Source: Candidatus Omnitrophota bacterium (GTDB taxonomy: Bacteria > Omnitrophota > Gorgyraeia > Gygaellales > Profunditerraquicolaceae). From it: 64,000 nt of DNA. Made by a program: the position numbers and the translations under genes. The notes beneath the pieces were generated by a model. That model made no database searches. It had not been told where the DNA came from and saw nothing but the letters and a program-made list of their open reading frames with translations. Shown piece after piece: positions 614 to 60,063 of the stretch; position 1 is the first letter of the stretch, and the number at the start of each line of letters is the position of its first letter. Location of the stretch: NCBI GenBank assembly GCA_025453395.1, contig JALOQK010000002.1, positions 410,509-474,508 on the forward strand, read 5' to 3'.

Positions 614-1681
614 TTAAATTATCCTTTTTAGCTCGCGCTGGTTTTCGCGTATCCAGGAAAATGTATCTTCAAATATCTGCGCAAGATTTTTAACCGCTCT
701 CCAGCCTAAATCAGCTTCTACGCGGGAATTATCCGTAAGGTATATTTTAATATCTCCCGGGCGGTCTTTTAATATAGAGCCGATATTGACTTTATTCTCT
801 GTGATCCTGGCGCAAGCAGAAGTTAATTCACGCAAAGACACCGAACAGTTTTTACCGCCGCCGGCATTATATATTTTACCATTTACTTTGTTGAAATTAC
901 GCATCTCTAAATCAATAAGGCCAAACAAATCATCCACATGCAAAATATCGCGCACCTGTTTACCCTGACCGCCAAAACCGATATAATTTAAATTACGCTT
1001 AAAATAATGCGCCAGCATCCAAAATGTCACTACGCCCTGATCCGCTTTACCAAACTGTCCCGGCCCAGCAACAACTCCGCAACGGTTAATTACTCCTCTT
1101 ATGCCATACATCTTAATATATTCAGTCAAAATAAGTTCCGAAGAAAGTTTTGTCGCGCCATATAAGGTTTTCGCGCCATCAAGCGGAAAATCAATATCTA
1201 TACCTTGCGAAGAAAACCCTCGCGCCTTTTGTCCTGCCAGCCATTCAAAGCGGCTGTCAGATTCTTTGGCCTTAAGCGCGTTAATTGCCTCATAAGGGTA
1301 AACCCGGCTTGTGGAGAGAAAAATTATATCCGCTTTATCTCTTCGCGCAAGCTCTAAGCAATTAACTGTCCCAACAAGATTGGTATTAATGATATATTTT
1401 GGATTATCCCCAAAACCCGCCAATACCGAAGGCTCGGCAGAACATTCAATTAGAAGTCCGATTTTATCTTTTAAGGCTAAATCCTCCGGACAGCGGATAT
1501 CCCCATGCATAAACTCAACGCCATGCGATTTAAGTATCGGAACATTTATTTCGCTTCCCCGCCTCTTAAAATTATCCAAAGCAATGATCTTTACTTTAGG
1601 ATATTTATCTTTAAGGCGCAAAGCAAGGCTGCTTCCAATAAATCCGGATCCGCCTGTTATTAAAATAGTCGAATAGCGCAT
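614..1681 (-). CDS. NAD-dependent epimerase/dehydratase of the extended SDR family, CDP-paratose 2-epimerase-like
   Basis: N-terminal Rossmann motif TGGSGFIGS. The central region (YGATKLSSE...GKADQGVVTFWM...GKQVRDILHVDD) resembles the RfbE/CDP-tyvelose epimerase family. Confidence 0.7.
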   Translation of the reverse strand: MRYSTILITGGSGFIGSSLALRLKDKYPKVKIIALDNFKRRGSEINVPILKSHGVEFMHGDIRCPEDLALKDKIGLLIECSAEPSVLAGFGDNPKYIINTNLVGTVNCLELARRDKADIIFLSTSRVYPYEAINALKAKESDSRFEWLAGQKARGFSSQGIDIDFPLDGAKTLYGATKLSSELILTEYIKMYGIRGVINRCGVVAGPGQFGKADQGVVTFWMLAHYFKRNLNYIGFGGQGKQVRDILHVDDLFGLIDLEMRNFNKVNGKIYNAGGGKNCSVSLRELTSACARITENKVNIGSILKDRPGDIKIYLTDNSRVEADLGWRAVKNLAQIFEDTFSWIRENQRELKRII

Positions 1682-2078
1682 TTTCAGCTATCAGCTTTCA
1701 GCTATCAGCTTTCAGCAAAGCTTTAATCTCTTTATGAAACCATAAAGCATTGCCGAAAGCTCATCGCATTGTGAATACTTCATAAGAAGAACGCAAAGCT
1801 ATATTAAGAAATCTTTTAAATTCTAAATCAGAACCTGAACCGCTACCTTCAGCTATATTAAGCGCTATTGACACAGACGCTCTTCTTATTTGAGAAGTCA
1901 AACCATAACATTCTGATTCTGGAAATTTACTGGTTTTTAAATACACCTGTTCAATAAAATCCATTGCCTTAGACCATACTTGTAGCTTTTTAAATTTCTG
2001 TATTTCCATCTTTATTGTTGTCTTTGTTTTAGCTGACAGCTGAAGGCTGATGGCTGATAGCTGAAAACTATTTTTTTA
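1682..2078. mobile_element. Palindromic cassette element, copy A. ~36-bp terminal inverted repeats built from t(a/t)tcagc heptamers flank a four-helix-bundle gene.
   Basis: The left arm at 1683-1716 is ttcagctatcagctttcagctatcagctttcagc. The right arm at 2030-2075 is its imperfect reverse complement (~31/36 identity). The whole ~400 bp is ~95% identical to 34104-34495. Confidence 0.65.
1761..2009 (-). CDS. Four-helix-bundle protein of the 23S rRNA intervening-sequence protein / Avd-like family, carried inside the repeat cassette
   Basis: The 82-aa product MEIQKFKKLQVWSKAMDFIEQVYLKTSKFPESECYGLTSQIRRASVSIALNIAEGSGSGS... matches the conserved family pattern (EDLxVWqkA...fpkxExYgLtsQirRAavSIpsNIAEG). 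It looks C-terminally shortened relative to typical ~115-aa members. Confidence 0.75.
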   Translation of the reverse strand: MEIQKFKKLQVWSKAMDFIEQVYLKTSKFPESECYGLTSQIRRASVSIALNIAEGSGSGSDLEFKRFLNIALRSSYEVFTMR

Positions 2079-10700: not shown

Positions 10701-11324
10701 TTATTTTATGCATGAAAGATGCCTTATATGTTCCATAAGCAAACTTGCGATCTGCTCGTAAGGCATCCCCCTTTCTATATGAATTTGCTTACCGAAATGT
10801 ATGCTTACTTTTCTATTAAAATCCATCTTAGCCCCTTTGGCCCAAGCACTGCCTGATCCTTCTATATATGCCGGAATTACTTTAGCATTGGATTTACTAG
10901 CTATAAAACCTACTCCCCCTAAAGCCTTTCCAAAAGTTCCCTCTGCCTGACGGGTTGCTTCCGGAAAAAGGCCTAAAGTTTTCTTTTGGCTTAATATGCG
11001 CAAGGCGCTTTTTAACGCCTTGATATCCGCGGAATTACGCTCCAGAGGCTGGACCTCCAGAGCGCGCAGGATCAAAGCAAATATTTTATTCTCAAATAAG
11101 GTATCGCGCGCTAAAAAATAAACCTTCTTGCCGGCGCCCACGCCTAAAATCAAAGGGTCAAGATAGCTTCTATGATTACAAGCCAAGATCACCGGGCCAG
11201 TTTTAGGAATATTCTCTCTGCCGTAAATCTTCAAGCCAAAACATAATTTCAGGAAGACAAAACACAAGAAGGCGCAAAAATGATAGAAAAGATCAATAAA
11301 ATATTGCCTTATATTAGAGGCCAC
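10701..11324 (-). CDS. plsC: 1-acyl-sn-glycerol-3-phosphate acyltransferase
   Basis: NHRSYLDP (HX4D acyltransferase motif) and FPEATR motif. Confidence 0.8.
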   Translation of the reverse strand: MASNIRQYFIDLFYHFCAFLCFVFLKLCFGLKIYGRENIPKTGPVILACNHRSYLDPLILGVGAGKKVYFLARDTLFENKIFALILRALEVQPLERNSADIKALKSALRILSQKKTLGLFPEATRQAEGTFGKALGGVGFIASKSNAKVIPAYIEGSGSAWAKGAKMDFNRKVSIHFGKQIHIERGMPYEQIASLLMEHIRHLSCIK

Positions 11325-24144: not shown

Positions 24145-24248
24145 ACTTCCTCCTAAAGTATTTGATATAATATTATACTATATTTTAAAGGATTTGCTAC
24201 AACAATTTTCTAGCGTATTCTTTAATTTTGACTTTTGACTTTTTACTT

Positions 24249-31421: not shown

Positions 31422-33175
31422 TATTTATTATTATACTCTGCGCTGTTTTACCATATCTAAACACTTTAAATGCCAACTTTGTCTGGGATGACGAAGTACA
31501 ACTTGTGCAAAACCCATACATGCAATCTTTTAAATACTTAAAAGATTTCTTTACGCATGATTTTTGGCACGTAGGCATTAACAAACTAGACACCGCTTAC
31601 TACCGGCCGCTTTTTGCCGCCAATCTTATGAGTCAATACGTTCTCTGGGGCAAAAATCCCTTTGGGTACCACCTAATCAACATCCTTTTACATTGCCTAA
31701 TAACCTTGTTAATTTTCAAAATCTTACTTTTGTTAACATCCGACGAAATAATATCTTTTACCGCAAGCCTTATTTTTGCTGTCCATCCAATTCACACAGA
31801 ATCTGTTTCTTTTATAGCTGCAATTGTGGACCTGCAGACTTTTATTTTCATGCTTCTTACTTTCCTCTGTTATATTCTATACCAAAGAAACAGCCGTAAA
31901 ATATTACTTGTGACTGGAGCTGTTTCTTTTGTTGCCGGGCTATTAACCAAAGAAATGGCTGTGATAACACCGTTTCTTATTCTCATAAAGGATGTTTTTA
32001 TCCCGAAAGAAAACAACAAAAAACAAAACATTGTAGCGTATTTTATCTTCTTCTTGATACTCGCAGCATATTTAATGTTTCGCGTTCATCTTTTTGGCAT
32101 AAAACCAAACGATGGGAATCTAGTGTCTTCAAATTTTATCCCCGGGAATACCCCCTATTGGAGATTTCTTACTGTACCTGCGATTATCGCCCGTTACATA
32201 GGGCTTCTTTTTATCCCATACAACATGACTGCAGATTATTTATTTAAAGCCAATAACTCTATTTGGAATATCTATGTTATCTCGGGAATGCTTATTATTT
32301 TACTTTGCATATTCGTAATTATTTTTTTGCGTAAGAAACAGGCGCTGTTATCATTTGCCATCGCATGGTTTGCATTAACCATCCTGCCGGTAAGTAATAT
32401 TTTCCCCCAGGGAAATATCTTTGCAGAGCGTTTCCTCTATATCCCATCACTTGGATTTTGCATCCTAATGGCAGTTGTTTTCTCTTATTTTCCAAAGAGG
32501 CCTCTGGTAACCTGTTTGTTTTACTGCTGGATAATAAGTATGGGCCGCTTAACATGGGAAAGAAATATCGTTTGGAAAAATGATTTAAATTTGTGGATAG
32601 ATACTGTTTCCAAAGTACCCAATAGCCCCAGGGCACATCTAAATCTTGCCGAACAATATTTTCTATATGGAAAAACAAATGAAGCAATATTAGAATTGGA
32701 TACTGCAATAAAGATTTTACCTAATTATAAACAAGCCTATAACGGCTTAGGCCTTGTATTGTATAAGACAGGCGATATAAATGCAGCTATTGCTGCCTAC
32801 CAAAAAGCCATAGCTATTGATCCTAAATATAACGAAGCCTACAACAATATGGCGGCGGCATTAATCGAAAATAAACAATACAAAGAAGCTATAAACGCCC
32901 TAGAAATTGCCATAAACTATAATCCCTATTTAACTTTTGCTTATTACAATCTGGGACAAGCATATGACAAATTAGGAATACCGGATAAGGCAATTGCTGC
33001 TTACGAAAAGTTTATTGCAATAAAGCCTGAATACGCAGTAATATATGCGGATATGGGCAGGCTTTATTACCAAGAAGGCAATACTAAAAAAGCTAAAGAA
33101 TGCTGCCTTAAAGCGCTTGAGCTTGCTCCGGGACACATGCCAGCGCAAGAAATAATAGATAAAATCAGGGATTAG
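31403..33175 (+). CDS. TMTC-like GT-C glycosyltransferase with C-terminal TPR repeats (protein O-mannosyltransferase-like)
   Basis: FVWDDE acidic motif in the first extracytoplasmic loop and ~11 TM helices. At least 5 C-terminal TPR units follow ([32 protein letters not shown]...). Confidence 0.6.
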
Positions 33176-34103
33176 ACTGAAACCAGTGGATGGTTGTTTC
33201 CAAGCCTTCTTGGAGTTTGATTTTTGGCTGCCAACCAAGCAGGCGCCTGGCGCGGGAGATATCGGGTTTTCTTTGTTTGGGGTCATCTTGGGGAAGCGGC
33301 TTATAGATAATCTTGCTTTTAGAATTGGTAATCTTAAGGACCAAATCCGCCAATTCCATAATAGTAAACTCTCCGGGATTGCCTAAATTAACCGGGTCAT
33401 GGAACTTTTTCCCCATTAGGCGGACAATCCCATCCACCAAATCCGAAACATAACAGAAACTGCGGGTTTGCGCGCCCTTTCCATACACAGTCAAAGGTTT
33501 ATTATTCAACGCCTGATAAATAAAATTCGGGACCACCCTGCCATCATTAATTCTCATAAATTCGCCGTAGGTATTGAAAATACGAATTATCCTTGTATCT
33601 ACTTTGTGCGTTCTGTGGTAAGCCATAGTCATTGCTTCGGCAAAACGTTTTGCCTCATCATAGCATCCGCGGATGCCCACGCTATTTACATTTCCCCAGT
33701 AACTTTCCGGTTGAGGATGGACTAATGGATCCCCGTAAACTTCAGAAGTAGATGCCAATAAGAATCCGGCTTTGTTTTTCATCGCCACGCCTAAAGCATT
33801 ATGCGTGCCTAAAGCTCCGGCCTTTAAGGTCTGTATGGGGTGTTTTAGATAATCATCGGGAGATGCGCAAGAAGCAAAATGCAGGACAAAATCCACCTTT
33901 TCCTTTATAGATATGTACTTACTAACATCATGTTTTACAAAACAAAAATGTTTATTTTTGATAATCCCCTCTATATTATCCAAGGAACCGGTAATTAAAT
34001 TATCCATACAAATAACCTGCCAACCGTCTTTAAGCAAACGGTCGCATAAATGCGAGCCGATAAACCCCGCTCCGCCAGTAACAAGAACTTTAGAATAACG
34101 CAT
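33165..34103 (-). CDS. uxs: UDP-glucuronate decarboxylase (UDP-xylose synthase)
   Basis: [13 protein letters not shown]...[34 protein letters not shown] is a near-canonical UXS signature. Confidence 0.85.
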
Positions 34104-34495
34104 TTTCAGCTATCAGCTTTCAGCTATCAGCTTTCAGCAAAGCTTTAATCTCTTTATGAAACCATAAAGCATTGCCGAAAGCTCATCGCATTGTGAACTT
34201 CTCATAAGAAGAACGTAAAGCAATATTAAGAAACCTTTTAAACTCTAAATCAGAACCTGAACCACTGCCTTCAGCTATATTAAGCGCTATTGACACGGCC
34301 GCTCTTCTAACTTGAGAAGTCAAACCATAACATTCTGATTGCGGGAATTTACTGGTTTTTAAATACACCCGTTCAATAAAATCCATTGCCTTAGACCATA
34401 CTTGTAGCTTTTTAAACTTTTGTATTTCCATTTTTATTATTGTCTTTGTTTTTAGCTGACGGCTGAAGGCTGACGGCTGATAGCTGAAAATATTC
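34104..34495. mobile_element. Palindromic cassette element, copy B (~95% identical to 1682-2078). Heptamer TIRs flank a four-helix-bundle gene.
   Basis: Left arm ~34104-34137 and right arm ~34450-34490. The right arm is read through by the upstream epimerase ORF. Confidence 0.65.
34183..34431 (-). CDS. Four-helix-bundle protein (23S rRNA IVS protein / Avd-like family), copy B
   Basis: 82 aa, 75 of 82 residues identical to the 1761-2009 product. Confidence 0.75.
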   Translation of the reverse strand: MEIQKFKKLQVWSKAMDFIERVYLKTSKFPQSECYGLTSQVRRAAVSIALNIAEGSGSGSDLEFKRFLNIALRSSYEKFTMR

Positions 34496-35425
34496 TACCG
34501 TTATTTTTAACCCCTCCGTGAAATTGACTTGCGGCTTAAAACCCAGTAACTTCTTGCTCAATGTCAAATCTGCTTTAGTGCGAAAAACATCGCCTTGGCG
34601 TTTGGGCAAAAATACAGGTTTTATCTTTTTGCCAAGTATTTTATTAAGAATACTGGCTAACTCTAAAACAGAATAATCCCTGCCCCCTGCCACATTAAAA
34701 ACTCCGGATTTAACTTTCCCCTTTAAGGCGCAACTTGCGGCCAATAAATTAGCTTGGACCGCATTGGCCACAAAAGTAAAATCCCGCGATTGCCTGCCGG
34801 TGCCATAAATTGGCATAGCGTTATCACGCAAAAGACAGTCAATGAATTTTGGCACTACTACCGCGTATTCATCATCAAGCGACTGCCGGGGCCCAAAAAC
34901 ATTAAAATAGCGTAAAGATACCGCCGGCACCCCATAATGCAAACTAAAAATCTTGCAATAATATTCCCCTGCAAGCTTACTTAATGCATAAGGCGAAATA
35001 GGCCCGGGGAAAAAAGATTCCTTCTCTGGAAACTTGCTGACATCGCCATACACAGAGCTTGAAGAGGCAAAAACAAACGCTTTCACGTTGTTTTCCCGTG
35101 AAGCCTCTAACATATTAAGAATCCCGCCTATATTTACCTTATTATACACATCAGGATTCTTCATGGACTTAGGCACGCTTCTCAAAGCCGCCTGATGAAA
35201 AACCACATCTACCCCTGAAACAGCCTTGCGGCAGGTATCTCTATCGCAAATATCGCCTTTTATTATCTTAACTTTACCGGATACCCCGGACAAATTATCA
35301 AGCTTGCCGCTTGAGAAATTATCCAAAACCCGCACTTGGCAATTATTTTTTACAAGCGCATCAACAATGTGCGAGCCGATAAACCCGGCGCCACCAGTAA
35401 CCAGTACTTTCTTATTAAAAAACAT
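34412..35425 (-). CDS. NAD-dependent epimerase/dehydratase, UDP-GlcNAc/UDP-Glc 4-epimerase family (WbpP/GalE-like)
   Basis: [26 protein letters not shown] and SSSSVYGD motifs. The last ~24 codons (QLSAVSLQPSAKNKDNNKNGNTKV) are encoded by the repeat arm, so the native C-terminus is probably shorter. Confidence 0.75.
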   Translation of the reverse strand: MFFNKKVLVTGGAGFIGSHIVDALVKNNCQVRVLDNFSSGKLDNLSGVSGKVKIIKGDICDRDTCRKAVSGVDVVFHQAALRSVPKSMKNPDVYNKVNIGGILNMLEASRENNVKAFVFASSSSVYGDVSKFPEKESFFPGPISPYALSKLAGEYYCKIFSLHYGVPAVSLRYFNVFGPRQSLDDEYAVVVPKFIDCLLRDNAMPIYGTGRQSRDFTFVANAVQANLLAASCALKGKVKSGVFNVAGGRDYSVLELASILNKILGKKIKPVFLPKRQGDVFRTKADLTLSKKLLGFKPQVNFTEGLKITVEYFQLSAVSLQPSAKNKDNNKNGNTKV

Positions 35426-35640
35426 TTAGAAAATATCCTTTTATTATCAAATAACCAAACACCAAATCTCAAACACCAAACAAATCCCAATAATCAATTA
35501 CCAATTTACCAAACAAGTTTGGTTTTTGGTGTTTGGTTTTTGGTTATTATTTGGTTATTTAACATTTGGTTATTGGTTATTTCCTACTTTTACCTTGTAA
35601 TTTTTACTTTTGCCTTTTTACTTTTGACTTTTTACTTTCT
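35426..35640. repeat. Long strand-skewed imperfect palindrome (CA-rich arm / TG-rich arm, ccaaacacc units) followed by ttttacttttg direct repeats
   Basis: accaaacaccaaatctcaaacaccaaac...tttggtttttggtgtttggtttttgg forms an inverted repeat of ~60 nt arms. It ends in tttttacttttgcctttttacttttgactttttacttt. Confidence 0.6.
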
Positions 35641-41105: not shown

Positions 41106-41180
41106 TTTGTCCCTCCGGTATATATATGGCGATAATGAAAAGTATTCTATACTAAAGCAGCGGGCTTTTCAAGCAATATA

Positions 41181-41291
41181 TCAGCTTTCAGCCATCAGCC
41201 TTCAGCTTTCAGCAAAAACAAAAATACAATAAGGAAATACCCTGTTTAGTATTTATTATTTTTCTTTTAGCTGATGACTGATAGCTGATAG
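41181..41291. repeat. Empty member of the heptamer-palindrome element family: two inverted arms around a ~55-bp ORF-less core
   Basis: atcagctttcagccatcagccttcagctttcagc ... agctgatgactgatagctgatagctga. It is intergenic between tal and a GGDEF gene. Confidence 0.6.
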
Positions 41292-41295
41292 CTGA

Positions 41296-42297
41296 TTAAC
41301 CCTGACAAACATATATTCGGTTACGCCCAGACTGTTTGGCTTTGTAAAGCGCCTGATCCGCCTTATCAATTAGTTCCTCCTGCGTCCGGCCGTGATCCGG
41401 GAAGAAAGACAAACCAATGCTTATGGTGGCTTTTAGCGTCTCATCATAGGCCTTAACCATGCCCTGTTCAATTGCCTGCCTTATACGTTCAGCCACAAAG
41501 ATGGCTTCTTCCATCTTGGTTTGGGGAAGAAGCAGGATAAATTCCTCTCCGCCAAAACGGCCCAAAAGATCAACCTGACGGCTGTTCTCCTTTATGGAAT
41601 TGCAGATATGCCGCAATATCTGATCCCCAACCAAATGCCCGTAACGGTCATTGCAATTCTTGAAGTGGTCCACATCGATCATCAGTATTGCGAATGTCAA
41701 ACCAAACCTTAATGAACGTTCCAACTCTTGAGCAAACCTTTCCAGATAATAACGCCGGTTAAAAATACCGGTTAGGCTATCAACAATAGACAACTCCTGC
41801 ACCTTAAGGTATAAAAACGCGCGTTTTAAAACAAGCATGAACTGATGCGTTAATATATCAAACTTCTCGCGGTCTTTTTCAGACAAACCCTTGATCAGCA
41901 AATATCCTGCGGCAGGCGAGCCTTTTTGCAGGATAAAAGGGATAACTTCATACCCCAGGACATCTTTTAGATTAGCCGTCTGCCGGACAAACCTGCAGTC
42001 CTGAAAATCTATGTGGCGCTCAATCTCTTCGCGAAAGACCATAAAAAGCTTATCCTCATCAAGATATTTACTGATTTCTTTGGTGATGGTATAAAGTTCC
42101 ATGGTATCAGAGGCATCCCTCTCTATCAAGGCGACCTGCGCTTCAAGCTCTTTATTTTGAGCGTATAGATCATGATAATGCTGCTGCATCTGCTTAGAGC
42201 TTAGAGAAAATTTGAATAATCTTTCCCTGAACCAAAACCTCAAATAGAAAAAACAATATAAAATAAGCGATATAAGTACGGCTATTTTCATAAACAA
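41296..42297 (-). CDS. Diguanylate cyclase (GGDEF) with N-terminal TM and coiled-coil
   Basis: RFGGEEF active-site motif and a predicted RxxD I-site region. Confidence 0.85.
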   Translation of the reverse strand: MFMKIAVLISLILYCFFYLRFWFRERLFKFSLSSKQMQQHYHDLYAQNKELEAQVALIERDASDTMELYTITKEISKYLDEDKLFMVFREEIERHIDFQDCRFVRQTANLKDVLGYEVIPFILQKGSPAAGYLLIKGLSEKDREKFDILTHQFMLVLKRAFLYLKVQELSIVDSLTGIFNRRYYLERFAQELERSLRFGLTFAILMIDVDHFKNCNDRYGHLVGDQILRHICNSIKENSRQVDLLGRFGGEEFILLLPQTKMEEAIFVAERIRQAIEQGMVKAYDETLKATISIGLSFFPDHGRTQEELIDKADQALYKAKQSGRNRIYVCQG

Positions 42298-47129: not shown

Positions 47130-48284
47130 CTATCTAAAAGTCTTTCGTATCCTATCTGTAAAACTGTCTTTGCCGGTGCCTTCCGGTGAAACGCGGGCGA
47201 ATTCTTCCATTGCCTTTCTTTGTTCCTGATTTAAATTTCTGGGTATTTCCACGTCAACCTTGACTAATTGATCGCCGATTTCTCTTGTATGCACGTCTGG
47301 CATGCCTTTTTCTTTAAGCCTGAATACGCTTGCGGATTGCGTTCCGGCAGGGATCTTCATAGAAACTTTGCCAGAAAGAGTAGGCACTTCTACTTGCGCG
47401 CCTAAAACAGCTTTTGCAAGGCTGACCTTGATTTCTGTGATAAGGTCGTTTCCATGGCGCTCTAAGAACGGATGGGCAGATACTTCTATCGCCACATACA
47501 AATCCCCTCTGCCAGCTGTCCCGTATTCACCTTCCTGCCTGATCCTAAGATTAGACCCCGTATCTACGCCCGCGGGGATCTTGACTTTTATTTTACGGGT
47601 AACTTTAACCCTGCCTTGGCCCTTGCATTCCGGACAGGCAGATTGGATAACACTTCCTTCACCTGAACAGGCAGTACAGGTTTGCGCCACCTGAAAGAAG
47701 CCATTAGAGGCAATTATTCTACCACTGCCCCGGCATTTAGAGCAAGTATTTTTCTTGCTTCCGGGCTTAGCCCCTGTGCCAGAACAAACTGCGCATACTT
47801 CGTAACGGGGCAGATTAATCGTCTTTTCAACACCCTGATAAGCCTCTTCCAGGGTTATATTTACGGCGATCTCTAAATCTCGTCCTCTGCGGCTGCGGTT
47901 GCCGCGCCGGCCTTGGGAGCCAAAAATATCAAACCCTAGGTCACTAAAGACTTCCTCAAATAGTCCTCCCCCAACCCCAAAATCACCCATCCCCTGAAAA
48001 ACACTGTTAAAATCCGCGCCCTTAAAGATATCCTCATAAGCGTATTTCTGGTCAATGCCTGAATGCCCATATTGATCATATAAGGCGCGCTTATTGGCGT
48101 CAGAAAGAATAGCATAAGCTTCGGAGATCTCTTTAAATTTCTCCTCGGCTTCTTTTTTCTGCTCTTGAGGCACACGGTCAGGATGAAAGCGCAAGGCCAT
48201 CTGACGGTACGCGTTCTTTACCTCATCCAGGCTTGCGCCTTTTTTGATCCCCAGGATCTCGTAATAATCACGTTTGGTAGACAT
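47130..48284 (-). CDS. dnaJ: Chaperone DnaJ
   Basis: J domain (DYYEILG...HPD), G/F region, four CxxCxGxG zinc-finger repeats and a C-terminal domain. Confidence 0.9.
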   Translation of the reverse strand: MSTKRDYYEILGIKKGASLDEVKNAYRQMALRFHPDRVPQEQKKEAEEKFKEISEAYAILSDANKRALYDQYGHSGIDQKYAYEDIFKGADFNSVFQGMGDFGVGGGLFEEVFSDLGFDIFGSQGRRGNRSRRGRDLEIAVNITLEEAYQGVEKTINLPRYEVCAVCSGTGAKPGSKKNTCSKCRGSGRIIASNGFFQVAQTCTACSGEGSVIQSACPECKGQGRVKVTRKIKVKIPAGVDTGSNLRIRQEGEYGTAGRGDLYVAIEVSAHPFLERHGNDLITEIKVSLAKAVLGAQVEVPTLSGKVSMKIPAGTQSASVFRLKEKGMPDVHTREIGDQLVKVDVEIPRNLNQEQRKAMEEFARVSPEGTGKDSFTDRIRKTFR

Positions 48285-48372
48285 AGAAGCGTAAAGGTTA
48301 AAGCGAAAAGCGTAAAACCAAAATTTAAAATTTTAAATTGTAGTTTTGCGCTTTACGCTTTTAGTTTTTAGT
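48285..48372. repeat. AT-rich palindromic element (family 2) in the dnaK-dnaJ intergenic space
   Basis: aaagcgaaaagcgtaaaaccaaaatttaaaa / ttttaaattgtagttttgcgctttacgctttt inverted arms. It is ~85% identical to the arm at 57340-57385. Confidence 0.6.
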
Positions 48373-50259
48373 TTACTTTTTATCATCCTCTTCTTTGAAC
48401 TCTGCGTCAATCACATCTTCCTTTTTTTCTTCTTTTTTCGGTTCCTCTGTCGCCGGCCCTCTATCTTCTGACTTCTGGCCTGCGTCTTGCGCCTTCTGCT
48501 GCTTCTGCGAAGCCTGCTTATAAACCTCTTCAGCCAGTTTATGCGAAGCCTTGCTTAAATCGTCCATGGTCTTCTTAATACGCTGCACATCCTTTTCTTT
48601 GATCGCGTTCTTAACATCATTAGCCTTCGCTTCAATATCCGCTTTTTCCTCCTGGCTTATTTTGTCTCCGAAATCGCGAAGTGAGCGTTCTGTGGCATAG
48701 ACAAAATTATCCGCCTGGTTAGTCACTTCCACAAGTTCCTTTTTCTTAACATCATCAGCGGCGAATTTCTCCGCGTCTTTAACCATCTTATCAATTTCTT
48801 CTTTGGAGAGCTTCTTAGGCGCTGTAATGCGCACAGATTGCTCTTTCCCTGTGCCGAGGTCCTTGGCTGAAACATGCACAATGCCATTGGCGTCAATATC
48901 AAAAGTAACCTCTATTTGAGGAACGCCTCTTGGAGCGGGAGGAATACCTACCAGATCAAACCTGCCCAGCTCTACATTATCATCAGCCATGGGCCTTTCG
49001 CCCTGCAAAACCCTAATAGTTACCGCAGTTTGATTGTCCGCGGCAGTAGAAAATGTTTGGCCTTTTCTGGTAGGAACAGTAGTATTTCTCTCAATAAGTT
49101 TAGTACTTACTCCACCCAATGTTTCAATGCCCAAAGATAGCGGAGTAACGTCCAGCAATAATACATCTTTGACTTCGCCTTTCATAATTGCCGCCTGGAT
49201 TGCCGCTCCCATTGCCACGCATTCCATAGGGTCAACCCCGCGCTCAATTTTCTTGCCGATGTAATCCTCAACAAATTTCTGCACAATAGGCATGCGCGTG
49301 GGCCCGCCGACCATAATCACGCGATCAACATCAGAAGCCTTAAGCTTGGCATCAGAAAGCGCCTGTTCCATAGGATGTTTGCAACGATCAATAATAGGAG
49401 ATACCAAGTCTTCAAGCTTAGCGCGGGTTATAGACATCGTCAAATGCTTAGGCCCCGCGGCATCAGCAGTAATAAACGGCAGATTTATATCAGTTGAAAC
49501 TGTGGAAGAAAGCTCCACTTTTGCCTTTTCTGCTGCTTCACGTAATCTCTGCACTGCCATTTTGTCATTACGCAAATCAATTCCGGATTCACGCTTAAAC
49601 TGGTCCATGATATGGTTAATCAAAACGTTATCCATATCAGTTCCGCCCAACTGCGTATCCCCGGATGTTGACTTTACCTCAAAGACGCCTTGCGCCATTT
49701 CCATAATAGTAACGTCAAGGGTACCGCCGCCTAAATCAAAGACCATTATTTTCTGTTCCTTTTGGGATTTTTCCAAGCCATAAGCCAAACACGCTGCCGT
49801 AGGTTCATTGATTATGCGCAAGACTTTCAATCCGGCGATCTCCCCTGCGTCTTTAGTGGCAGTACGCTGGTTATCATCAAAATAAGCCGGGCAAGTAATA
49901 ACCACCTCTTCAACTTTATCGCCCAGATAGGCTTCGGCGTCCTGTTTTACTTTCTGCAGGATAAACGCGGAAATCTGCTGCGGCGAATACTCTTTGCCAA
50001 ATGCCTTAAAATGATAGTCGCTTCCCATCTTACGCTTGGCAGCCTGAATAGTCCCTTCAGGATTGATTGCCGCTTGACGACGCGCTGGCTCGCCGACAAG
50101 GCGCTGTCCGTCTTTGGTAAAAGCCACATAAGACGGAAACGCCTTGCCTGATGCCACCCCTGCTCCTTCCGCAGAAGGAATAATTACCGGCCTACCGCCT
50201 TCCATCACCGCTGCAGCTGAATTCGAAGTACCTAAATCAATACCGATTACTTTTGCCAT
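48373..50259 (-). CDS. dnaK: Chaperone DnaK (Hsp70)
   Basis: [14 protein letters not shown]... with all Hsp70 signatures. The start is set at MAKVIG, 7 codons inside the ORF-track start. Confidence 0.95.
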
Positions 50260-54360: not shown

Positions 54361-55671
54361 TTAATTATTTTTGTTAGATATTCTAACAGTTATCCCCATC
54401 TTCTTATCCAACAACAGCTTATCTGCTAATACTTTAGTCGTAACCAGCTTGATCTCTACGCTTTTATTAAGGTATTTAATCTGTTCAACCTTGCCCATTT
54501 TGTAAATCATATTCACCAAATCCATTCTCCCCTGCGCAAGGGTTAAATCTAACTTCACCATCCTTGCGCTAAACACCTGGGTGATTTTTTCTAATAATTT
54601 ATCTATATTCTTACTCGTCAAAGCAGAAATTGCCACAGAATCCGCATAAGTGCTCAACAGATTATCTAAATACTGCTGATCAGGCACAAGGTCAATTTTG
54701 TTTAATACGGTGATAGTTTTCTTGTCTTCTAATTCCAATTGCTTCAAAACATCTAATACCGCCAGATACAATTGTTCGCTTTTGTGATGGCTTGCGTCCA
54801 AAACGTGCAAAAGCAAGTCCGCCTCAATGGCCTCTTCCAAGGTGCCATGAAATGCCTGGATTAAATGATGCGGCAGATTATAAAGAAAACCCACGGTATC
54901 TGAAATAATTATCTGCTCTTTATTCAAAAGGGAGAGGTTGCGCGATAAAGGATCAAGGGTTGTAAAAAGGCTGTTCTGGACCTTCTGCCCGGCAAAAGTT
55001 AAAGTATTAAGAAGCGTTGATTTACCGGCATTAGTATAACCCACAATCGCCACAACCGGAATGTCATTTTCTTTTCTTTTCTTGCGCGCAACTTGCCGAT
55101 GCAAAGACAATCGCGCCAGCTGCTCCTTTAGTTTATCAATTCTTGCGCGCACGCATCTTCGGTCTGTTTCAAGCTTCTGTTCACCGGGGCCGCGCGTACC
55201 AATGCCTGCACCCAGCCGCGACAACCAGGGGTCACTGCCCACAAGCCGCGGCAGAAGATATTCCAATTGCGCCAACTCCACTTGCGTTTTTCCTTCCATG
55301 CTCTTGGCATGCCTGGCAAAAATATCCAAGATAAGCTGGGTGCGGTCAATTACTTTCTTGTCCAACACCTCTTCAAGATTGCGCTGTTGGGTGCCGGACA
55401 AATCCACATTAAAAATTACCGTCTGAACGTCATATTCAGATGCCAAAGCTTTCAATTCTTCGGCTTTGCCCTTACCTATATATAGATTGGGGGTGATTTG
55501 TTTTAGCATGCAGGGGATCGTATCTACCGGCTCTGCGGAAGCTGTATCCGCAAGCTCTTCTAACTCAAGCGCCATATCCTCAAGCGCCCAGCCAGATTCA
55601 TCATCATATTCTTTTACTACGATTAACAATGCTCTTTCTTTCATTACCCTAACTTTCCAATCTGTTGGCAA
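54361..55671 (-). CDS. hflX: GTPase HflX
   Basis: HflX N-terminal domain followed by a G domain ([17 protein letters not shown]). Confidence 0.9.
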
Positions 55672-56575
55672 TAAGCTTAGAGATAGCGGACGGCTTATCC
55701 TTTGCCTTGATTTCTATCCAACATAAACGCTTATCTTTTCTAAACCAAGTCAGCTGGCGCTTAGCATATAAACGGGTATTATGCTTAATCCGCTCTAAAG
55801 CTTCTTCCAATAAACACTCATCCTTTAAGTAAGAACCAATTTCAGAGATTCCTATGGCAAAGCTGGCGGTTCGGCTTGTTTTCTTCTTTAATAAATCCTT
55901 CACTTCTTTTAATAATCCCGACTTTTGCATTTTATTTACCCGCTTATCAATGCGAGAATACAAATCTTTCCTGTCCATATTAAGACAAAAGGCTTTAATA
56001 TCATAACTATCCGCCAAGCCGCTTCTTTGTTTCTGCAAAAAAGATATTTTCTTGCCCGTACCCAGAAAAACTTCCAGTGCCCGTATAACCCGCTTCAGGT
56101 CATGGGGATGGATCTTAGCTGCCGCCTCTTTATCGGTTTTTAGCAATATCTGATACAAATATTCTTTGCCCTTGTCTTGGGAAAGCTTATATAGCCGGGA
56201 ACGGATTTTTTCCTGCTCTGGAATTTTAACTTCAAAAATGCCGTCCAGCAAAATAGACATATAAAGCCCTGTGCCGCCAACAAGAATCGGGGTTTTTCCG
56301 CGCGAAAAAATATCAATTATTGCCGCATTGGCTTGTTTACGGTACCGCGAAACATCATATTCACAAGTTACCGGAACTTGTTCAAATAAATGATGCTTGA
56401 CTTGCCTCTTAAATTTATCTTCAGGAGCAGAATTCAAAATATTCATTCCCTGGTAGACTTGCATGGAATCACAACAGACAATCTCGCCGTTTATTTTCTT
56501 TGCCAGGCAATAAGCGACCGCGCTTTTACCCGAAGCTGTAGGCCCAACAATAAAAATAATTCTTTTTTTCAGCAA
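55649..56575 (-). CDS. miaA: tRNA dimethylallyltransferase
   Basis: [16 protein letters not shown]-loop with a MiaA core. Confidence 0.9.
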
Positions 56576-56622
56576 AGCATTCCTCTCATACTAAAACCAA
56601 AAGATTTTGGCATAAACATCTA

Positions 56623-57411
56623 CTATGGGAAAATTTTGGTAGGTAAACCCTGGCCAGATAGTTTTTTCTCTACGACTTGGGCTTCTTGCAGCGAATTCAA
56701 CTTGCCCACGCGCACTTTATAAACCGGCTTGCCGGAATTCTCTGACTGAACAAGATAGGAATCAAACCCCTGATTATATAACCTATCCTTTAGCTCTAAA
56801 GCGTTATTTTTCTCACTAAATGCGCCCACTTGGACACAATAGAATTCTTTGGGGCAGACTTCTTCGGGCTTAAGCTGAAAACAACTGAAACTGGGGTCCT
56901 TTAATTTAGCTAAATAATTCTGCGATTTAACAGTATCGCCTTTTTTTAACGCGCATTGGCTTAAACGGTAATAAATCTGGTCCAACACTACCGAAAACTC
57001 GCTATCTGTAATAGTGCCCTCGTAGATACCCTGCGCCTTGGTATAGTCCTCTCTCAAGAAAAACGTATCCCCTAATCCTATTTTAGCCTTAGTTTTGAAT
57101 TTGCTGTCCTGAAATTCATTGATCACTATCTCGAAAATATCTGACGCGCGCAGATAATTTGCGTCTTTAAGATAACTAATCCCTAAAAGATAATATAACT
57201 CATCCATGCCCTTTTCATCATGTTTGGTATCCCCCAGCAGGATCTCCCCCTCTATGATAGCCGCCTTATAATCATGCCTTAAGATATCAACCTTGATCTT
57301 CTCTAAATCCAAAGCATAAACGCGTGATACAAACGAAAAACTCAAAGCGAAAAATGTAAAACCAAAACTTAAAATTAAAAATTTAACCGCTTTTTCTCTT
57401 TGTCTTTTCAT
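56623..57411 (-). CDS. TPR-like / SPOR-domain periplasmic protein (septal peptidoglycan-binding)
   Basis: Signal peptide and a TPR-like helical region. The C-terminal SPOR domain reads YCVQVGAFSEKNNALELKDRLYNQGFDSYLV...YKVRVGKLNSLQEA. Confidence 0.6.
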   Translation of the reverse strand: MKRQREKAVKFLILSFGFTFFALSFSFVSRVYALDLEKIKVDILRHDYKAAIIEGEILLGDTKHDEKGMDELYYLLGISYLKDANYLRASDIFEIVINEFQDSKFKTKAKIGLGDTFFLREDYTKAQGIYEGTITDSEFSVVLDQIYYRLSQCALKKGDTVKSQNYLAKLKDPSFSCFQLKPEEVCPKEFYCVQVGAFSEKNNALELKDRLYNQGFDSYLVQSENSGKPVYKVRVGKLNSLQEAQVVEKKLSGQGLPTKIFP

Positions 57412-57475
57412 GTTTACATTTTAACTTTTAAACTTTAGCTTTACGTTTTTCGTTTTGCGCTTTAAGCTTAACTGA
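57340..57475. repeat. AT-rich palindromic element (family 2) overlapping the start of the SPOR-domain gene
   Basis: The caaagcgaaaaatgtaaaaccaaaacttaaaattaaaaatttaa arm lies inside the signal-peptide coding region. The complementary T-rich arm (tttacattttaac...tttttcgttttgcgcttt) lies in the 5' UTR. Confidence 0.55.
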
Positions 57476-58789
57476 TATTTTCTTCTGTAGCTCCAATATT
57501 AAACCGTGCCTTCTTTCTTTTTCCGCTTTTGGCACATCATCCGGCATATTCGCGGCTTGCGTATGCGGCCGGGGCGAATACTTAAAGATAAAACCGGCGT
57601 TAAATTCAACTTCTTTTATTAAATCGTAAGTATCTTGAAAATCTTTTTCTGTCTCACCCGGAAATCCTACAATAATATCCGTAGTCAGGGCCCCATTAGG
57701 AACTATTTTACGATATTGCGCCGCTAAATCCAAATAGAATCTTCTGGTATATTGGCGGTTCATTAACTTTAAAATCCGGTCAGAGCCTGATTGCACCGGA
57801 AGATGCAGATATTTCTTAAGTTTGCCGCATTCTGCCATCGCCTTAAAAAGCTCAATACTTGTATCTTTAGGGTGAGAAGTAATAAAACCAAACTCCTTTA
57901 AGCCTTTAACCGCATTGACTGTTTTTAATAAATCCACAAAACTGATTTCTATATCTTTATTTGGAATTTGGGATTTGGAATCTGAGATTTGGGATTTGTA
58001 AGAGTTTACGTTCTGCCCCAGCAAGGTAACGCTTGTGATTCCTAGGGCAACCGCCTCGTTTATTTCTTGCAAGATATCTTCTTTTCTTCTGTGGCGTAGT
58101 GCTTTGCGAGTATAAGGCACGACACAGTATGAGCAAAAGTTAGAACAGCCTTCGGAAATAACAATAAAGGCATGATTTTTATCTTCAAAAAATCCGGTAT
58201 GATAAATCTGCTCCGGCCTGTTTTCGCCGTCTGTCTCCCAAATCTTGCTTTCAAAAAAGCTTTTTGCTTTTAGTTTTTCGCCTTTAGCTGAAGGCTGACA
58301 GCTGACAGCTGACAGCTGACTGATTATTTCTGGGATTTTTGCGATATCCGCCGGCCCGACCACAAAATCCACCTCCGGCGACCTCTCAAACACCGCTTCT
58401 TTATAATTCTGCGCCATACATCCAACAAGCCCTATTATAGGTTTATTTTTCTCACTTTTTCCTTTTTCCTTTTTACTTTTTAGTTTTGTGATCCTCCCAA
58501 TTTCACTCCACACCTTCTCCTCGGCGTGCTGGCGCACAGAACAGGTATTAAGAATAACCACATTTGCTTCTTCCGCCAAACCAGTTATCGTATATCCTGC
58601 CTTCTGCAAAATCCCGGAAATCACCTCGGAATCCCGTAGATTCATCTGACAACCAAAAGTTTTGATAAAAACTTTTGGTTGCCGTGTCCGCGCTGCGCAG
58701 GGTAAAGTTTGCAAAACTTTACCCTGCACGTTTGCAGCCGGACCACTTTGGCGCCCGGACCTATTTCTACTTCTTCTTTGCTCTTCCAT
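57428..58789 (-). CDS. miaB: MiaB-like tRNA methylthiotransferase without a recognisable TRAM domain, carrying several repeat-derived in-frame inserts
   Basis: MTTase N-domain KVFIKTFGCQMNLRDSEV...ILNTCSVRQHAEEKV and radical-SAM core (CSNFCSYC). It ends where the TRAM domain would start. The N-terminal 38 aa are encoded by a palindrome-rich stretch. Inserts KLKSKKEKGKSEKNK, QLSAVSCQPSAKGEK and YKSQISDSKSQIPN are encoded by repeat DNA. Confidence 0.7.
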   Translation of the reverse strand: MEEQRRSRNRSGRQSGPAANVQGKVLQTLPCAARTRQPKVFIKTFGCQMNLRDSEVISGILQKAGYTITGLAEEANVVILNTCSVRQHAEEKVWSEIGRITKLKSKKEKGKSEKNKPIIGLVGCMAQNYKEAVFERSPEVDFVVGPADIAKIPEIISQLSAVSCQPSAKGEKLKAKSFFESKIWETDGENRPEQIYHTGFFEDKNHAFIVISEGCSNFCSYCVVPYTRKALRHRRKEDILQEINEAVALGITSVTLLGQNVNSYKSQISDSKSQIPNKDIEISFVDLLKTVNAVKGLKEFGFITSHPKDTSIELFKAMAECGKLKKYLHLPVQSGSDRILKLMNRQYTRRFYLDLAAQYRKIVPNGALTTDIIVGFPGETEKDFQDTYDLIKEVEFNAGFIFKYSPRPHTQAANMPDDVPKAEKERRHGLILELQKKISVKLKAQNEKRKAKV

Positions 58790-59099
58790 GATTTTTTCTT
58801 ATCTCCAACACCTTATCAAGGCGCATGCCACCTACCAATAATTCTTTTTGTTTTCTGGTAAATTCCTTAATCGTCTTCTCTAATTTAAACGCCGGCTTAA
58901 ATTGCTTATATTGCTTATTCCACACCAGCTTCACGGGCCTTCTGTCGCGCGTATATTTGGCGCCTTTACCCTTGTTGTGTAATTCTATACGCTTTTCTAA
59001 ATTAGGCGTATAACCTGTATAAAACGTCCCATCCCCACACTCCACCATATACACCCAAAACTTCCCGCTTCTTTTAAATTTCTTTCTACTACTTATCAT
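58767..59099 (-). CDS. GIY-YIG nuclease-family protein (UPF0213/YhbQ-like)
   Basis: FWVYMVECGDGTFYTGYTPNLEKRIELHNKGKGAKYTR is a canonical stand-alone GIY-YIG domain. Confidence 0.8.
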   Translation of the reverse strand: MISSRKKFKRSGKFWVYMVECGDGTFYTGYTPNLEKRIELHNKGKGAKYTRDRRPVKLVWNKQYKQFKPAFKLEKTIKEFTRKQKELLVGGMRLDKVLEIRKNHGRAKKK

Positions 59100-59178
59100 A
59101 ACCTTCGCTTCTTTTTGCCTAAAATGTCACATACATTCACAGGTCTGCCTGCGGCAGACAGGCAGGCGCCCCTATTAT

Positions 59179-59940
59179 TTACTTCTCCGCCACCACAAGC
59201 ATTTCAAAATCTTCGGTAGTCAATTTGTCATTTCTTGAATAAGCCCCAAGCTTGGAGCCGAAGATATCGATCTTTTTGAATCCAAGCGTCTTTAAAAGCC
59301 ATGTTATCTCACTGGGTACATAATAACGCTCGTTGCACTTAAGCTCCTTTTTATTACCGGAATCGTCTTCAAAAACAGCGGTGTTATGGTCGCGGAAAGT
59401 CATCAGGTCAAAAGAGCAGTCCTTGCACTGAGATTGGCCTTCTTTCTGAGCTAACTCATAGAATTCCTTGACCGAATGGAAAAGCGGGAATAATCCGTTT
59501 AATGCGGTGAAAACAAGCTTCCCCTGACCGTTCAAAGCTCTGGCCGCGCTCTTAAGGATCGCGAAATTCATTTCATCCGTTTCCATAAGAGAAAACCCGC
59601 CTTCGCAGAGCATAATGGCTAGATCAAATTCACCCTCAAACGGAAGGCCTCGCGCGTCATACTTCTGGAAATTAATTGTCAGCCCTGCCGCTTTGGCTTT
59701 CTCCCGCGCTCCCGCAAGCTGTGACTCGGAAAGATCAACGCCTGTCACTTTATACCCTCTTTTGGTCAGTTCGATAGCGTGGCGGCCGGTGCCGCAACCA
59801 ATGTCGATTATCTTTAAAGATTTATTGCGGCTAATCTCCTGTTCAATAAAATCGCACTCGCCCGCAGTGCCCTGAACAAAAGGCTCGTTATCATATTTGC
59901 GAGCGTAATTCTCGAATAATGCTTCGTACCATTGTTTCAT
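59179..59940 (-). CDS. Class I SAM-dependent methyltransferase
   Basis: Motif I IIDIGCGTGRHA, post-I acidic residue and motif II. Confidence 0.75.
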   Translation of the reverse strand: MKQWYEALFENYARKYDNEPFVQGTAGECDFIEQEISRNKSLKIIDIGCGTGRHAIELTKRGYKVTGVDLSESQLAGAREKAKAAGLTINFQKYDARGLPFEGEFDLAIMLCEGGFSLMETDEMNFAILKSAARALNGQGKLVFTALNGLFPLFHSVKEFYELAQKEGQSQCKDCSFDLMTFRDHNTAVFEDDSGNKKELKCNERYYVPSEITWLLKTLGFKKIDIFGSKLGAYSRNDKLTTEDFEMLVVAEK

Positions 59941-60063
59941 TTTAATCCTTTCTTACAATTTAATTAGAACTTTCATTTTAAGGGAACTGGCCTTATGACA
60001 ATATTCCTGCTTACACAACTTAAAAATATTTTTCCTATTCATTTAACACAGCGCAATAATAAA

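Follow-up and report, generated by a model that had tools for sequence, protein, structure and literature searches.

A heptamer repeat array carried in-frame in a loop of MiaB in TRAM-less Omnitrophota, with a core conserved at the nucleotide level

How does a tandem repeat with a seven-nucleotide unit come to lie in the reading frame of a conserved tRNA-modification gene, and is it kept there as protein, as nucleic acid, or as neither? The question is raised by a Candidatus Omnitrophota bacterium (assembly GCA_025453395.1, contig JALOQK010000002.1), of which a stretch of 64,000 nucleotides, hereafter the window, was analysed; positions are those of the window unless another locus is named. 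Its miaB gene (57428..58789, minus strand; 453 codons from the first ATG) encodes a UPF0004 and a radical SAM domain and no TRAM domain. An initial annotation of the window had noted a heptamer stretch at 58270-58322 within this coding region and had taken it for an inserted ‘solo arm’ of a heptamer element, which would imply a recent event. The stretch is indeed there, as an in-frame array at 58286-58323, although its history proved to be different.

The array (58286..58323, minus strand; SQLSAVSCQPSAK), which will be referred to as site 2, consists of five TCAGC(T/C)N units and a partial unit, and falls in the linker that joins the UPF0004 domain to the radical SAM domain. Its plus-strand string is agctgaaggctgacagctgacagctgacagctgactga, in which Tandem Repeats Finder recognised 5.0 copies of a period of 7 at 58286-58320 with 89% matches; on the coding strand, the units are TCAGCTG three times, followed by TCAGCCT and TCAGCTA. 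A two-unit probe (CAGCTGACAGCTGA, with at most 2 mismatches) found 17 matches in the window against 0.20 expected, a number that was reached in 0 of 100 shuffles. The array is translated as QLSAVSCQPSAK, which in the context of the open reading frame (ORF) reads SQLSAVSCQPSAKGEKLKAK and covers residues 158-176. In the forward, plus-strand direction the array contains stops in all three frames; the coding strand is open in all three, and the reverse-complement heptamer gives the 7-residue periodic peptide LSAVSCQ in whichever frame it is read. The array in miaB sits, in other words, in its sole translatable orientation.

The same array was found in register at three further loci (L001, L002 and L004), which show 67-73% protein identity and conserved synteny. 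The units are TCAGCTT, TCAGCTG, TCAGCTT, TCAGCTG and TCAGCTA in L001; GCAGCTG, TCAGCTG, TCAGCCT, TCAGCCT and TCAGCTA in L002; and AAAGCTT, TCAGCTG, TCAGCTT, TCAGCCT and TCAGCTA in L004. In the TCAGC core 0 of 20 columns vary, synonymous positions included, and all 4 variable columns of the array are heptamer positions 6-7 (p = 0.0034); they occupy codon positions 1, 2, 2 and 3, and they change the residue (C/F/L and P/L). Among identical residues of the array, the codons were identical in 8/8, 9/10 and 10/10 cases, compared to 45-47% for the remainder of the gene (p = 0.002, 0.007 and 0.0007, respectively), and third-position identity was 0.86-1.0 in the array versus 0.43-0.47 gene-wide, which places the array above the invariant catalytic motifs. 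Since arrays with invariant TCAGC cores lie in register in orthologues at this degree of divergence, the site 2 array is shown to be old, orthologous and not recently inserted. The initial annotation had also considered that the inserts might be conserved in related taxa as ordinary protein; they are conserved in relatives, yet with their full repeat character at the DNA level. Next to site 2 lies an A-rich array (58258..58289, minus strand; GCTTTTN, on the coding strand GAAAAAC, TAAAAGC and AAAAAGC; period 7, 4.6 copies by Tandem Repeats Finder), which encodes GEKLKAK and is common to the window and L001 only, as judged by alignment A1 and the L001 DNA.

Two other repeat-derived, in-frame inserts had been proposed for the gene, and both were borne out. 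Site 1 (58442..58487, minus strand; period 7, ACTTTTT, 4.9 copies) encodes KLKSKKEKGKSEKNK, residues 102-116, in a UPF0004 loop located between Cys83 and Cys124; its coding-strand units are CTAAAAA, GTAAAAA, GGAAAAA, GGAAAAA and GTGAGAA, and similar GTAAAAA/GTCAAAA arrays are also found 3' of stop codons at 24226-24250 and 35601-35638. Site 3 (57959..57998, minus strand; period 7, ATTTGGG, 5.7 copies) encodes KSQISDSKSQIPN, residues 265-277, in the radical SAM barrel loop that follows the LLGQNVNSY strand, with the coding-strand units AAATCCC, AAATCTC, AGATTCC, AAATCCC and AAATTCC. The site 3 unit (ATTTGGGATTTGGG, with at most 3 mismatches) occurred outside miaB in the window no more often than by chance, the looser CCAAA/TTTGG arrays at 35454-35582 being its sole likeness there. 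Across genomes, site 3 resembles site 2 in its conservation: locus L173 has a perfect (AAATCCC)x5.5 of equal register and length, with 35/39 nucleotides identical versus 68% gene-wide. The site 3 unit is also complementary, over 9 nt, to the segment that encodes KIWET, but this match was discounted as post hoc, since orthologues differ in their KIWET codons.

It had been suggested that the inserts be mapped on aligned orthologues and on a structure, and by this means all three were placed in loops. In the AlphaFold model of the window MiaB (mean predicted local distance difference test score, pLDDT, 75.7), the pLDDT drops below 50 at residues 107-113 and 164-180, and is about 52 in the loop 269-279, between the strands 265-268 and 280-283, which corresponds to site 3. 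Residues 36-444 align to the solved MiaB structure 7MJV, against which sites 1, 2 and 3 appear as gaps of 7, 8+3 and 8 residues, respectively.

These loops are not a peculiarity of the window. In an alignment of 26 orthologues, and in the site peptides from the best 120 homologues listed, length and sequence varied at exactly the three sites, and the peptides found there look like translated repeats, such as SAVSCQPSAK, VTSHQSPVTS, VHHPSSIIH, STIDHRLST and FGVRSSE, as well as GTVPKRRGQSPF/KGQSPKGGDSPLF, RITGYPDNRI and KVTVTKSDSHL. In the 120 orthologues, residue self-identity at a lag of 7 was 0.13-0.16 at the three sites, compared to about 0.06 for other lags and for the background. The underlying DNA differs from genome to genome. 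At site 1 we found (GAAAACT)x3 in L004, CCGGATA-type units in L002, inverted GGAGTTA/AAACTCC arrays in L087 and a period-8 array in L169; at site 3, (ATCAGCC)x5 in L001, (AGTTCGG)x4.5 in L169 and the above-mentioned (AAATCCC)x5.5 in L173. In L006, paired GGGGACAGTCCCC palindromes occupy sites 1, 2 and 3, and all six copies of this palindrome in the 15-kb locus fall in these three miaB sites. A 4-mer common to two different sites was found in 15 of the 120 proteins, as opposed to 4.7 +/- 2.0 when site peptides were shuffled among proteins. Two homologues (P0071 and P0117) have minimal loops at the sites, showing that the loops are not essential. Overall, these results show that three MiaB loops have been repeatedly filled, across the TRAM-less Omnitrophota, by whichever short repeat or palindrome the given genome has.

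That miaB is a preferred place for such arrays is also indicated by counts. Orthologous loci were obtained by scans of genome and metagenome contigs, which yielded at least some 13 Omnitrophota loci and mostly MiaB loci of other phyla, the latter being used as controls. In a sample of 228 kb from the TRAM-less clade (14 loci; 14 miaB genes making up 17 kb, and 179 other ORFs making up 182 kb), 10 period-7 arrays were interior to the coding sequence of miaB versus 2 in the other ORFs, an approximately 50-fold excess per kilobase (binomial p = 1e-9); the two exceptions were the tail of an epimerase in the window and the N-terminus of the gene adjoining miaB in L091. Perfect hairpins of at least 9 bp were likewise more frequent, 7 in miaB versus 17 in other coding sequence of the 14 loci (p = 0.003). 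A crude ORF map makes the window about 94% coding; of its 15 period-7 arrays, 11 lie between genes or at the ends of genes, and the gene-interior ones are the three in miaB and that in the epimerase tail, with no others. Arrays in L169 are confined to miaB, and L173 has two in miaB and two at junctions, so that these two loci together contribute four further miaB arrays and 0 in other coding sequence; in L168, arrays are found only in a second, broken miaB copy. Among 146 control loci of other phyla (2.0 Mb), there were six arrays, one of them inside a miaB. This control gene, from a Prevotella metagenome-assembled genome (MAG), has an internal period-7 array of the ACTCAAC type (L029, 4064-4088).

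The host protein itself looks like a working enzyme. Pfam recognised the UPF0004 domain (PF00919, E = 3e-31, residues 39-145) and the radical SAM core with its CxxxCxxC motif (PF04055, E = 1e-28), and the product scored 397.1 bits with the NCBIfam MiaB equivalog TIGR01574, for which the cut-off is 355.3. In alignment A1, Cys83, Cys124, Cys215, Cys219 and Cys222 are invariant and Cys47 is nearly so; since all six cluster cysteines are thus retained, the enzyme looks functional, as judged from its residues. The assignment is supported by miaA, the isopentenyl pyrophosphate (IPP) transferase gene (55649..56575, minus strand; PF01715, E = 1.5e-77), which lies two genes downstream, and the gene order miaB - SPOR/TPR - miaA - hflX was found again at every orthologous locus fetched. 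Among the homologues, the best ones come from Candidatus Omnitrophota MAGs and have 376-482 residues, except for one of 660 residues (P0005). The latter is a fusion of MiaB with the SPOR-domain protein encoded downstream, which presumably arose by loss of the stop codon in the repeat-rich junction; in the window, 16 nt separate the miaB stop codon from the next gene.

The lack of a TRAM domain, which the initial annotation had pointed out, is real, and it belongs to the whole clade. MiaB is defined as a family of three domains, namely UPF0004, radical SAM and TRAM (PMC2952846). In the window MiaB, Pfam gave no match to TRAM (PF01938), and the TIGR01574 match covers profile positions 1-381 and stops there, out of 437; none of the best 120 MiaB homologues listed (P0001-P0120) has the domain either. 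More distant Omnitrophota (L011, L014 and L092) keep TRAM, and no arrays were found in their miaB genes. Because the 120 best listed homologues lack TRAM and the distant Omnitrophota MiaB keep it, the loss is a clade trait and no local damage. In comparison with the MiaB/RimO methylthiotransferases of known structure (7MJV and 4JC0), therefore, the window protein shares both catalytic domains, the six cluster cysteines, the equivalog score and the proximity of miaA, and differs by the absence of TRAM, by three loops that are longer by 7-11 residues, and by an unusual, structured 5' end.

At that 5' end, two perfect hairpins had been proposed to encode the N-terminal extension, or else to represent structure in the 5' untranslated region, and the proposal holds for one of them in part and fails for the other. 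Hairpin I1 (58650..58681, minus strand; a perfect 14-bp stem with a 4-nt loop) encodes QPKVFIKTFGC, i.e., the conserved first strand and the first cluster cysteine, Cys47; its sequence is nearly identical in L167, and KVFIKTFGCQMN is conserved in alignment A1. Since it encodes the conserved start of the domain, hairpin I1 is coding sequence. The second element (58686..58744, minus strand) comprises hairpin I2 (58697-58727; a perfect 14-bp stem with a 3-nt loop) and a basal stem in which 58686-58696 pairs with 58734-58743; the RNA fold z-score of the 5' hairpin region is -6.9. L167, which is 60% identical and, like the window, has a GIY-YIG gene upstream, keeps about 110 nt of the 5' region at the DNA level, including both stems (L167 10040-10125) with a different loop and a compensatory change in the basal stem, from CTGC/GCAG to CCGC/GCGG. 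Relative to the window it has indels of 5, 1, 2 and 1 nt, which change the local frame and sum to 9 nt, and the ORF from the upstream ATG is open in both genomes. By this pattern it is the structure that is conserved, and the 58686-58744 element would be a structured leader, a translated structured segment, or both, and it may be an unnamed cis-regulatory RNA. An Rfam scan of 56500-60000 at E <= 1 returned nothing relevant, and the hairpin sequence GCAGGGTAAAGTTT has no second copy in the window, hence it is no interspersed repeat there.

The unusual 5' end also affects where the gene is said to start. Translation may begin at ATG 58789, at the GTG of codon 22 or at the TTG of codon 27, and there is no ATG, GTG or TTG between the upstream hairpin and the KVF codons; the N-terminal 35 residues are modelled at a pLDDT of about 30. 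The start chosen by the Prokaryotic Genome Annotation Pipeline (PGAP), M49, deletes Cys47: the record P0001 corresponds to residues 49-453. In P0001 and 10 other orthologues, the annotated start lies at MN(V/L)RDSEV, by which the first strand and a cluster cysteine are cut off. That this start marks a real truncated form was considered and rejected, since in L006 an upstream GTG restores the normal N-terminus; annotation artefacts, due to the unusual 5' ends, are the probable source of at least some of these starts. Farther upstream, the flank of miaB (58767-59940 in the window, and its counterparts in L001, L004, L006, L167 and L169) differs in every genome and contains genes of mobile or defence type, among them a GIY-YIG gene, a serine recombinase with Phage_rep_O, AbiEi/AbiEii, SduA_C, and an HNH gene with NACHT. 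Possibly, this flank is a hot spot for integration at the 5' end of miaB.

The repeats in miaB belong to a larger set that lies mostly at gene junctions. The initial annotation had assigned the site 2 array to a heptamer element, and its kinship with the inverted arms around two small ORFs at 1684-2064 and 34106-34487 was verified: in the forward direction the unit is AGCTGAN, and six intergenic arms and the miaB array all have five units of TCAGC(T/C)N. Cassette 1 (1684..2064, minus strand) has inverted five-unit arms at 1684-1716 and 2030-2064 around a truncated ORF (1761..2009) of PF05635, the four-helix-bundle family of 23S rRNA intervening sequences (IVS), and its forward arm stops 1 nt short of the ATG of the epimerase gene 614..1681. 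Cassette 2 (34106..34487, minus strand) has its arms at 34106-34138 and 34453-34487; the forward arm again ends 1 nt before the ATG of an epimerase gene (33165..34103), and the epimerase ORF 34412..35425 runs through the reverse arm, which forms its tail. This ORF ends in FQLSAVSLQPSAKNKDNNKNGNTKV (tail QLSAVSLQPSAK...), past its Pfam domain, which ends at residue 308 of 337, so that the arm peptide does recur in an epimerase tail, as had been stated. Each cassette lies between epimerase genes and consists of the reverse arm, an 82-codon truncated PF05635 ORF (full-length relatives have about 121 codons), and the forward arm. The two cassettes (1681-2068 and 34103-34491) are about 94% identical over some 388 nt, the similarity stopping at the outer edges of the arms; the arms pair in an RNA fold (z = -4.5), and no Shine-Dalgarno sequence is visible at the ATGs that follow the forward arms. 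A further inverted pair of TCAGCNN units encloses no ORF (41181..41296, minus strand; arms 41181-41213 and 41268-41296, about 55 nt apart), and the hairpin of 41170-41305 has a predicted -56 kcal/mol and a z-score of -7.7.

Other junctions show the same architecture with other units. The notion of one single heptamer element had therefore to be given up in favour of inverted array pairs, with different units, at several gene junctions. The dnaK-dnaJ junction (48283-48380) holds inverted arrays of the GCGTAAA type (z = -3.2), and the same junction of L173 (10427-10483) holds an inverted pair of the GTATTGC type, i.e., the position is as in the window and the unit has changed; the stems of the dnaK-dnaJ arrays are 6-7 bp and broken every seventh base, and the L168 junction has no array. 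The region 35426-35638, which separates a gene for a UDP-glucose dehydrogenase-like protein from an epimerase gene, consists of little else than heptamer arrays, with GTAAAAA/GTCAAAA units after the stop codon followed by inverted AACCAAA/TTTGGTT arrays. The end of miaB is itself such a place: a junction hairpin of inverted heptamer arrays (57340..57472, minus strand; RNA fold z = -2.2) has one arm (57431-57472) that encodes a heptamer-periodic C-terminal tail of MiaB, VKLKAQNEKRKAKV, and another that encodes the signal-peptide-like N-terminus of the downstream SPOR/TPR gene. Orthologous miaB genes also end in arrays, e.g., L001 at 11263-11298 and L173 at 3589-3619.

The association of the arrays with PF05635 genes extends beyond the window. 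In L170 (2840-3460), L171 (2840-3410) and L172 (2840-3500 and 4160-4760), of which L170 and L171 are named Omnitrophota, the PF05635 genes have inverted heptamer arrays on both sides, so that with the cassettes 6/6 of the genes examined are bracketed in this manner. Two of the four flanks in L170-L172 have CTGA-core units, one has AGTCGTC/GACGACT, and one has the unrelated CGAAATT. The layout is constant, in that the PF05635 stop codon lies within the forward array and the next ATG 4-6 nt beyond it (6 nt in L170, 4 nt in L171). PF05635 is related to Avd of diversity-generating retroelements (DGR) (PMC10053308), and its member Xcc0516 was assembled from five four-helix bundles, according to reference 25 as cited in that paper. 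By analogy, the cassettes resemble a 23S rRNA intervening sequence moved into polysaccharide operons: as in the intervening sequences with PF05635, the inverted repeats pair to make a long stem and enclose a small PF05635 ORF, with the difference that the cassettes are placed between protein genes of polysaccharide clusters and that their stems are made of heptamer arrays. The site 2 array in miaB has no partner arm and encloses no ORF.

The closest described relatives of the repeat are the TAACTGA direct repeats of Beggiatoaceae, Cyanobacteria and Bacteroidetes (MacGregor 2015, PMC4679880). They occur in sets of 2-6 units, mostly intergenic and most often ending 1 nt ahead of a start codon with no Shine-Dalgarno sequence; their forward orientation is closed in all frames, and the few reverse copies within ORFs give LSVISYQ (PMC4679880). 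In both cases there are 7-nt tandem units with a CTGA core, forward stops in three frames, reverse orientation of the copies within ORFs, placement before start codons, and a 7-residue periodic peptide (LSVISYQ there, LSAVSCQ here). Nonetheless, the unit in the window is AGCTGAN, sharing the CTGA core only, the host phylum is Omnitrophota, and the arrays are typically inverted, hairpin-forming pairs, of which PMC4679880 describes one case. Moreover, in-ORF copies in that study were at protein ends or in hypothetical proteins, whereas here the array is in an interior linker of a conserved enzyme, is orthologous and conserved at synonymous sites, and is accompanied by others to make at least three arrays in one gene. 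The earlier paper names neither miaB nor four-helix-bundle genes, and no report of such heptamer repeats in Omnitrophota was found in the literature searched.

What, then, keeps these arrays in miaB? We favour, with moderate confidence, the explanation that junction-type repeats are tolerated in the disordered loops of miaB and are kept there by constraint or homogenisation at the nucleotide level. Under this explanation, the arrays would arise and turn over through slipped-strand or template-switch copying and would spread among nearby permissive sites within miaB, with selection removing only those versions that bring in a stop codon or have a length not divisible by three. The translated array is a disordered linker between the two catalytic domains and would add nothing specific to the catalysis of MiaB. 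The core, in turn, would be conserved either by a trans-acting factor that reads the whole repeat family, or by homogenisation of the miaB copy against the junction copies. A precedent of a general kind exists in Rickettsia palindromic elements (RPE), which are palindromic elements of about 100-150 bp found in-frame in many unrelated protein-coding genes and tolerated in surface regions. The likeness is that non-coding-type repeats are tolerated in-frame in functional proteins as extra peptide segments; the difference is that the miaB inserts are 33-46 nt long, are heptamer arrays or short palindromes, and occupy three fixed sites of one gene. RPE are mentioned in passages of PMC1779305 and PMC10969869.

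Several observations weigh against our explanation. First of all, the invariant TCAGC cores mean that some constraint or conversion acts on the miaB copy, since a passive passenger should drift at synonymous positions. Homogenisation would call for a donor, and in L001, L002 and L004 no further family members were seen in the 10-15 kb available per locus, so that no local conversion donor is documented there. Slippage as the generating process is something that we infer, a single length difference having been found among sequences that are at least 90% identical. Tolerance of loops does not by itself explain why arrays are almost lacking in about 180 neighbouring genes, many of which also have loops and tails. 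Lastly, the hot-spot sample consists of miaB neighbourhoods and one window, with a crude ORF map and with thresholds of our own choosing.

The main alternative, which we consider possible and yet rather unlikely, would give the site 2 array a function of its own in cis, as an RNA or DNA element of miaB that is maintained through selection on the expression of this gene. The array might bind the factor that acts on the junction arrays, fold into a self-complementary CAGCUG hairpin at which ribosomes pause on reaching the domain boundary, or be a site of processing. Such a role would agree with the synonymous-site conservation of the cores in four species, with a five-unit length that equals that of the intergenic arms, with the concentration of arrays and hairpins in miaB, with the conserved structured leader on the same gene, and with the palindromic CAGCTG core and the self-folding of the array. 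However, many orthologues have another repeat or almost nothing at site 2, the solo array folds weakly (z = -1.96), no trans-acting factor has been identified, and the orientation of the in-gene array is the reverse of that used at junctions upstream of start codons.

A broader and more speculative form of this idea, which we regard as distinctly unlikely, is that five-unit AGCUGAN arrays are operators of a phylum-wide post-transcriptional system into which miaB is wired, and that the PF05635 protein is the candidate reader. The protein is proposed because its gene is bracketed by arrays in all six cases, and because an Avd-like PF05635 protein would be pentameric, matching the five units per arm. 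If the operator idea were true, the in-frame array and the structured leader would put MiaB under that control. A related idea is that the array, being readable in all three frames, is a frameshift-sensing segment by which the synthesis of a frame-maintaining tRNA modification enzyme would be coupled to decoding fidelity.

We regard as improbable the possibility that miaB is a contingency locus, in which gain or loss of heptamers switches the frame, or that frameshifting on the array couples MiaB synthesis to decoding fidelity. The modification ms2i6A37 is known to affect reading-frame maintenance. Also in favour are a unit that is not a multiple of three and the presence of three arrays in one gene, and as in simple-sequence contingency loci, non-triplet tandem units lie in a coding region. 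There is even a broken copy: L168 has a second miaB (6636-7740), 61-73% identical to the intact copy in three aligned segments and split into three frames, with the frame changes located at site 1 and within the site 3 arrays; this paralogue would be a pseudogene or, with lower likelihood, a gene that depends on frameshifting. Among sequences that are at least 90% identical, the site 1 repeat also shows an in-frame indel of 8 residues. Yet this indel is the only internal length difference in eight clusters at that identity, and the search for rapid phase variation in them was essentially negative. Furthermore, 120/120 listed orthologues are in frame, the arrays are short (about 5 units) and imperfect, and many sites hold palindromes instead of tandem units. 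Unlike the known contingency loci, these arrays showed no variation in unit number among the close relatives compared, and they reside in a housekeeping tRNA-modification gene and not in a surface or restriction gene.

The remaining possibilities fare still worse. That one arm of a mobile heptamer/four-helix-bundle cassette was recently inserted in-frame in this genome is suggested by the match of the miaB array to the cassette arms in unit and length, and by the cassette being a discrete repeated unit of which the two copies, about 94% identical, diverge at the outer arm edges; it is made highly improbable by the in-register array of orthologues from four different metagenomes, and no PF05635 ORF adjoins miaB in any locus examined. 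That LSAVSxQPSAK is an ordinary protein-level linker motif, the repeat look of its DNA being incidental, might be argued from the recurrence of the peptide in many orthologues. We give this very little credence, because the codon identity is far above the gene-wide rate, the varying positions follow the heptamer phase and alter the residue, the DNA unit is also found between genes of the window, and the loop is modelled with very low confidence. As for an assembly artefact, which the initial annotation had entertained, short-read metagenome assemblies can mis-join repeats, but P0121, from a second public record (a 197-kb contig of the Joint Genome Institute, JGI), matches the 453-residue product exactly, arrays stand at these sites in many independent assemblies, and the reading frame is intact throughout, which leaves this a negligible prospect.

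Our preferred explanation thus remains one of repeats that are tolerated in miaB loops and kept at the nucleotide level, and the array is best filed with the CTGA-core heptamer repeats, as an orthologous, nucleotide-conserved, in-frame copy in a housekeeping enzyme whose three loops take up short repeats throughout the clade. Short repeats whose unit is not a triplet would be expected to disappear from essential genes, and here they are carried in-frame at three loops across a clade. In practical terms, gene callers shorten miaB, as PGAP does at M49, and repeat-derived loops can mislead alignment and domain annotation in candidate phyla. For the biology of these organisms, the locus offers a case for studying how non-coding repeats become protein, and for studying concerted evolution, or selection at the level of the nucleic acid, inside genes. 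It also makes a case for asking what reads the CTGA-core heptamer arrays that were first described in Beggiatoaceae and Cyanobacteria, and the link between heptamer-array hairpins and genes for four-helix-bundle proteins (Avd and intervening-sequence, or IVS, proteins) provides a candidate partner for these repeats.

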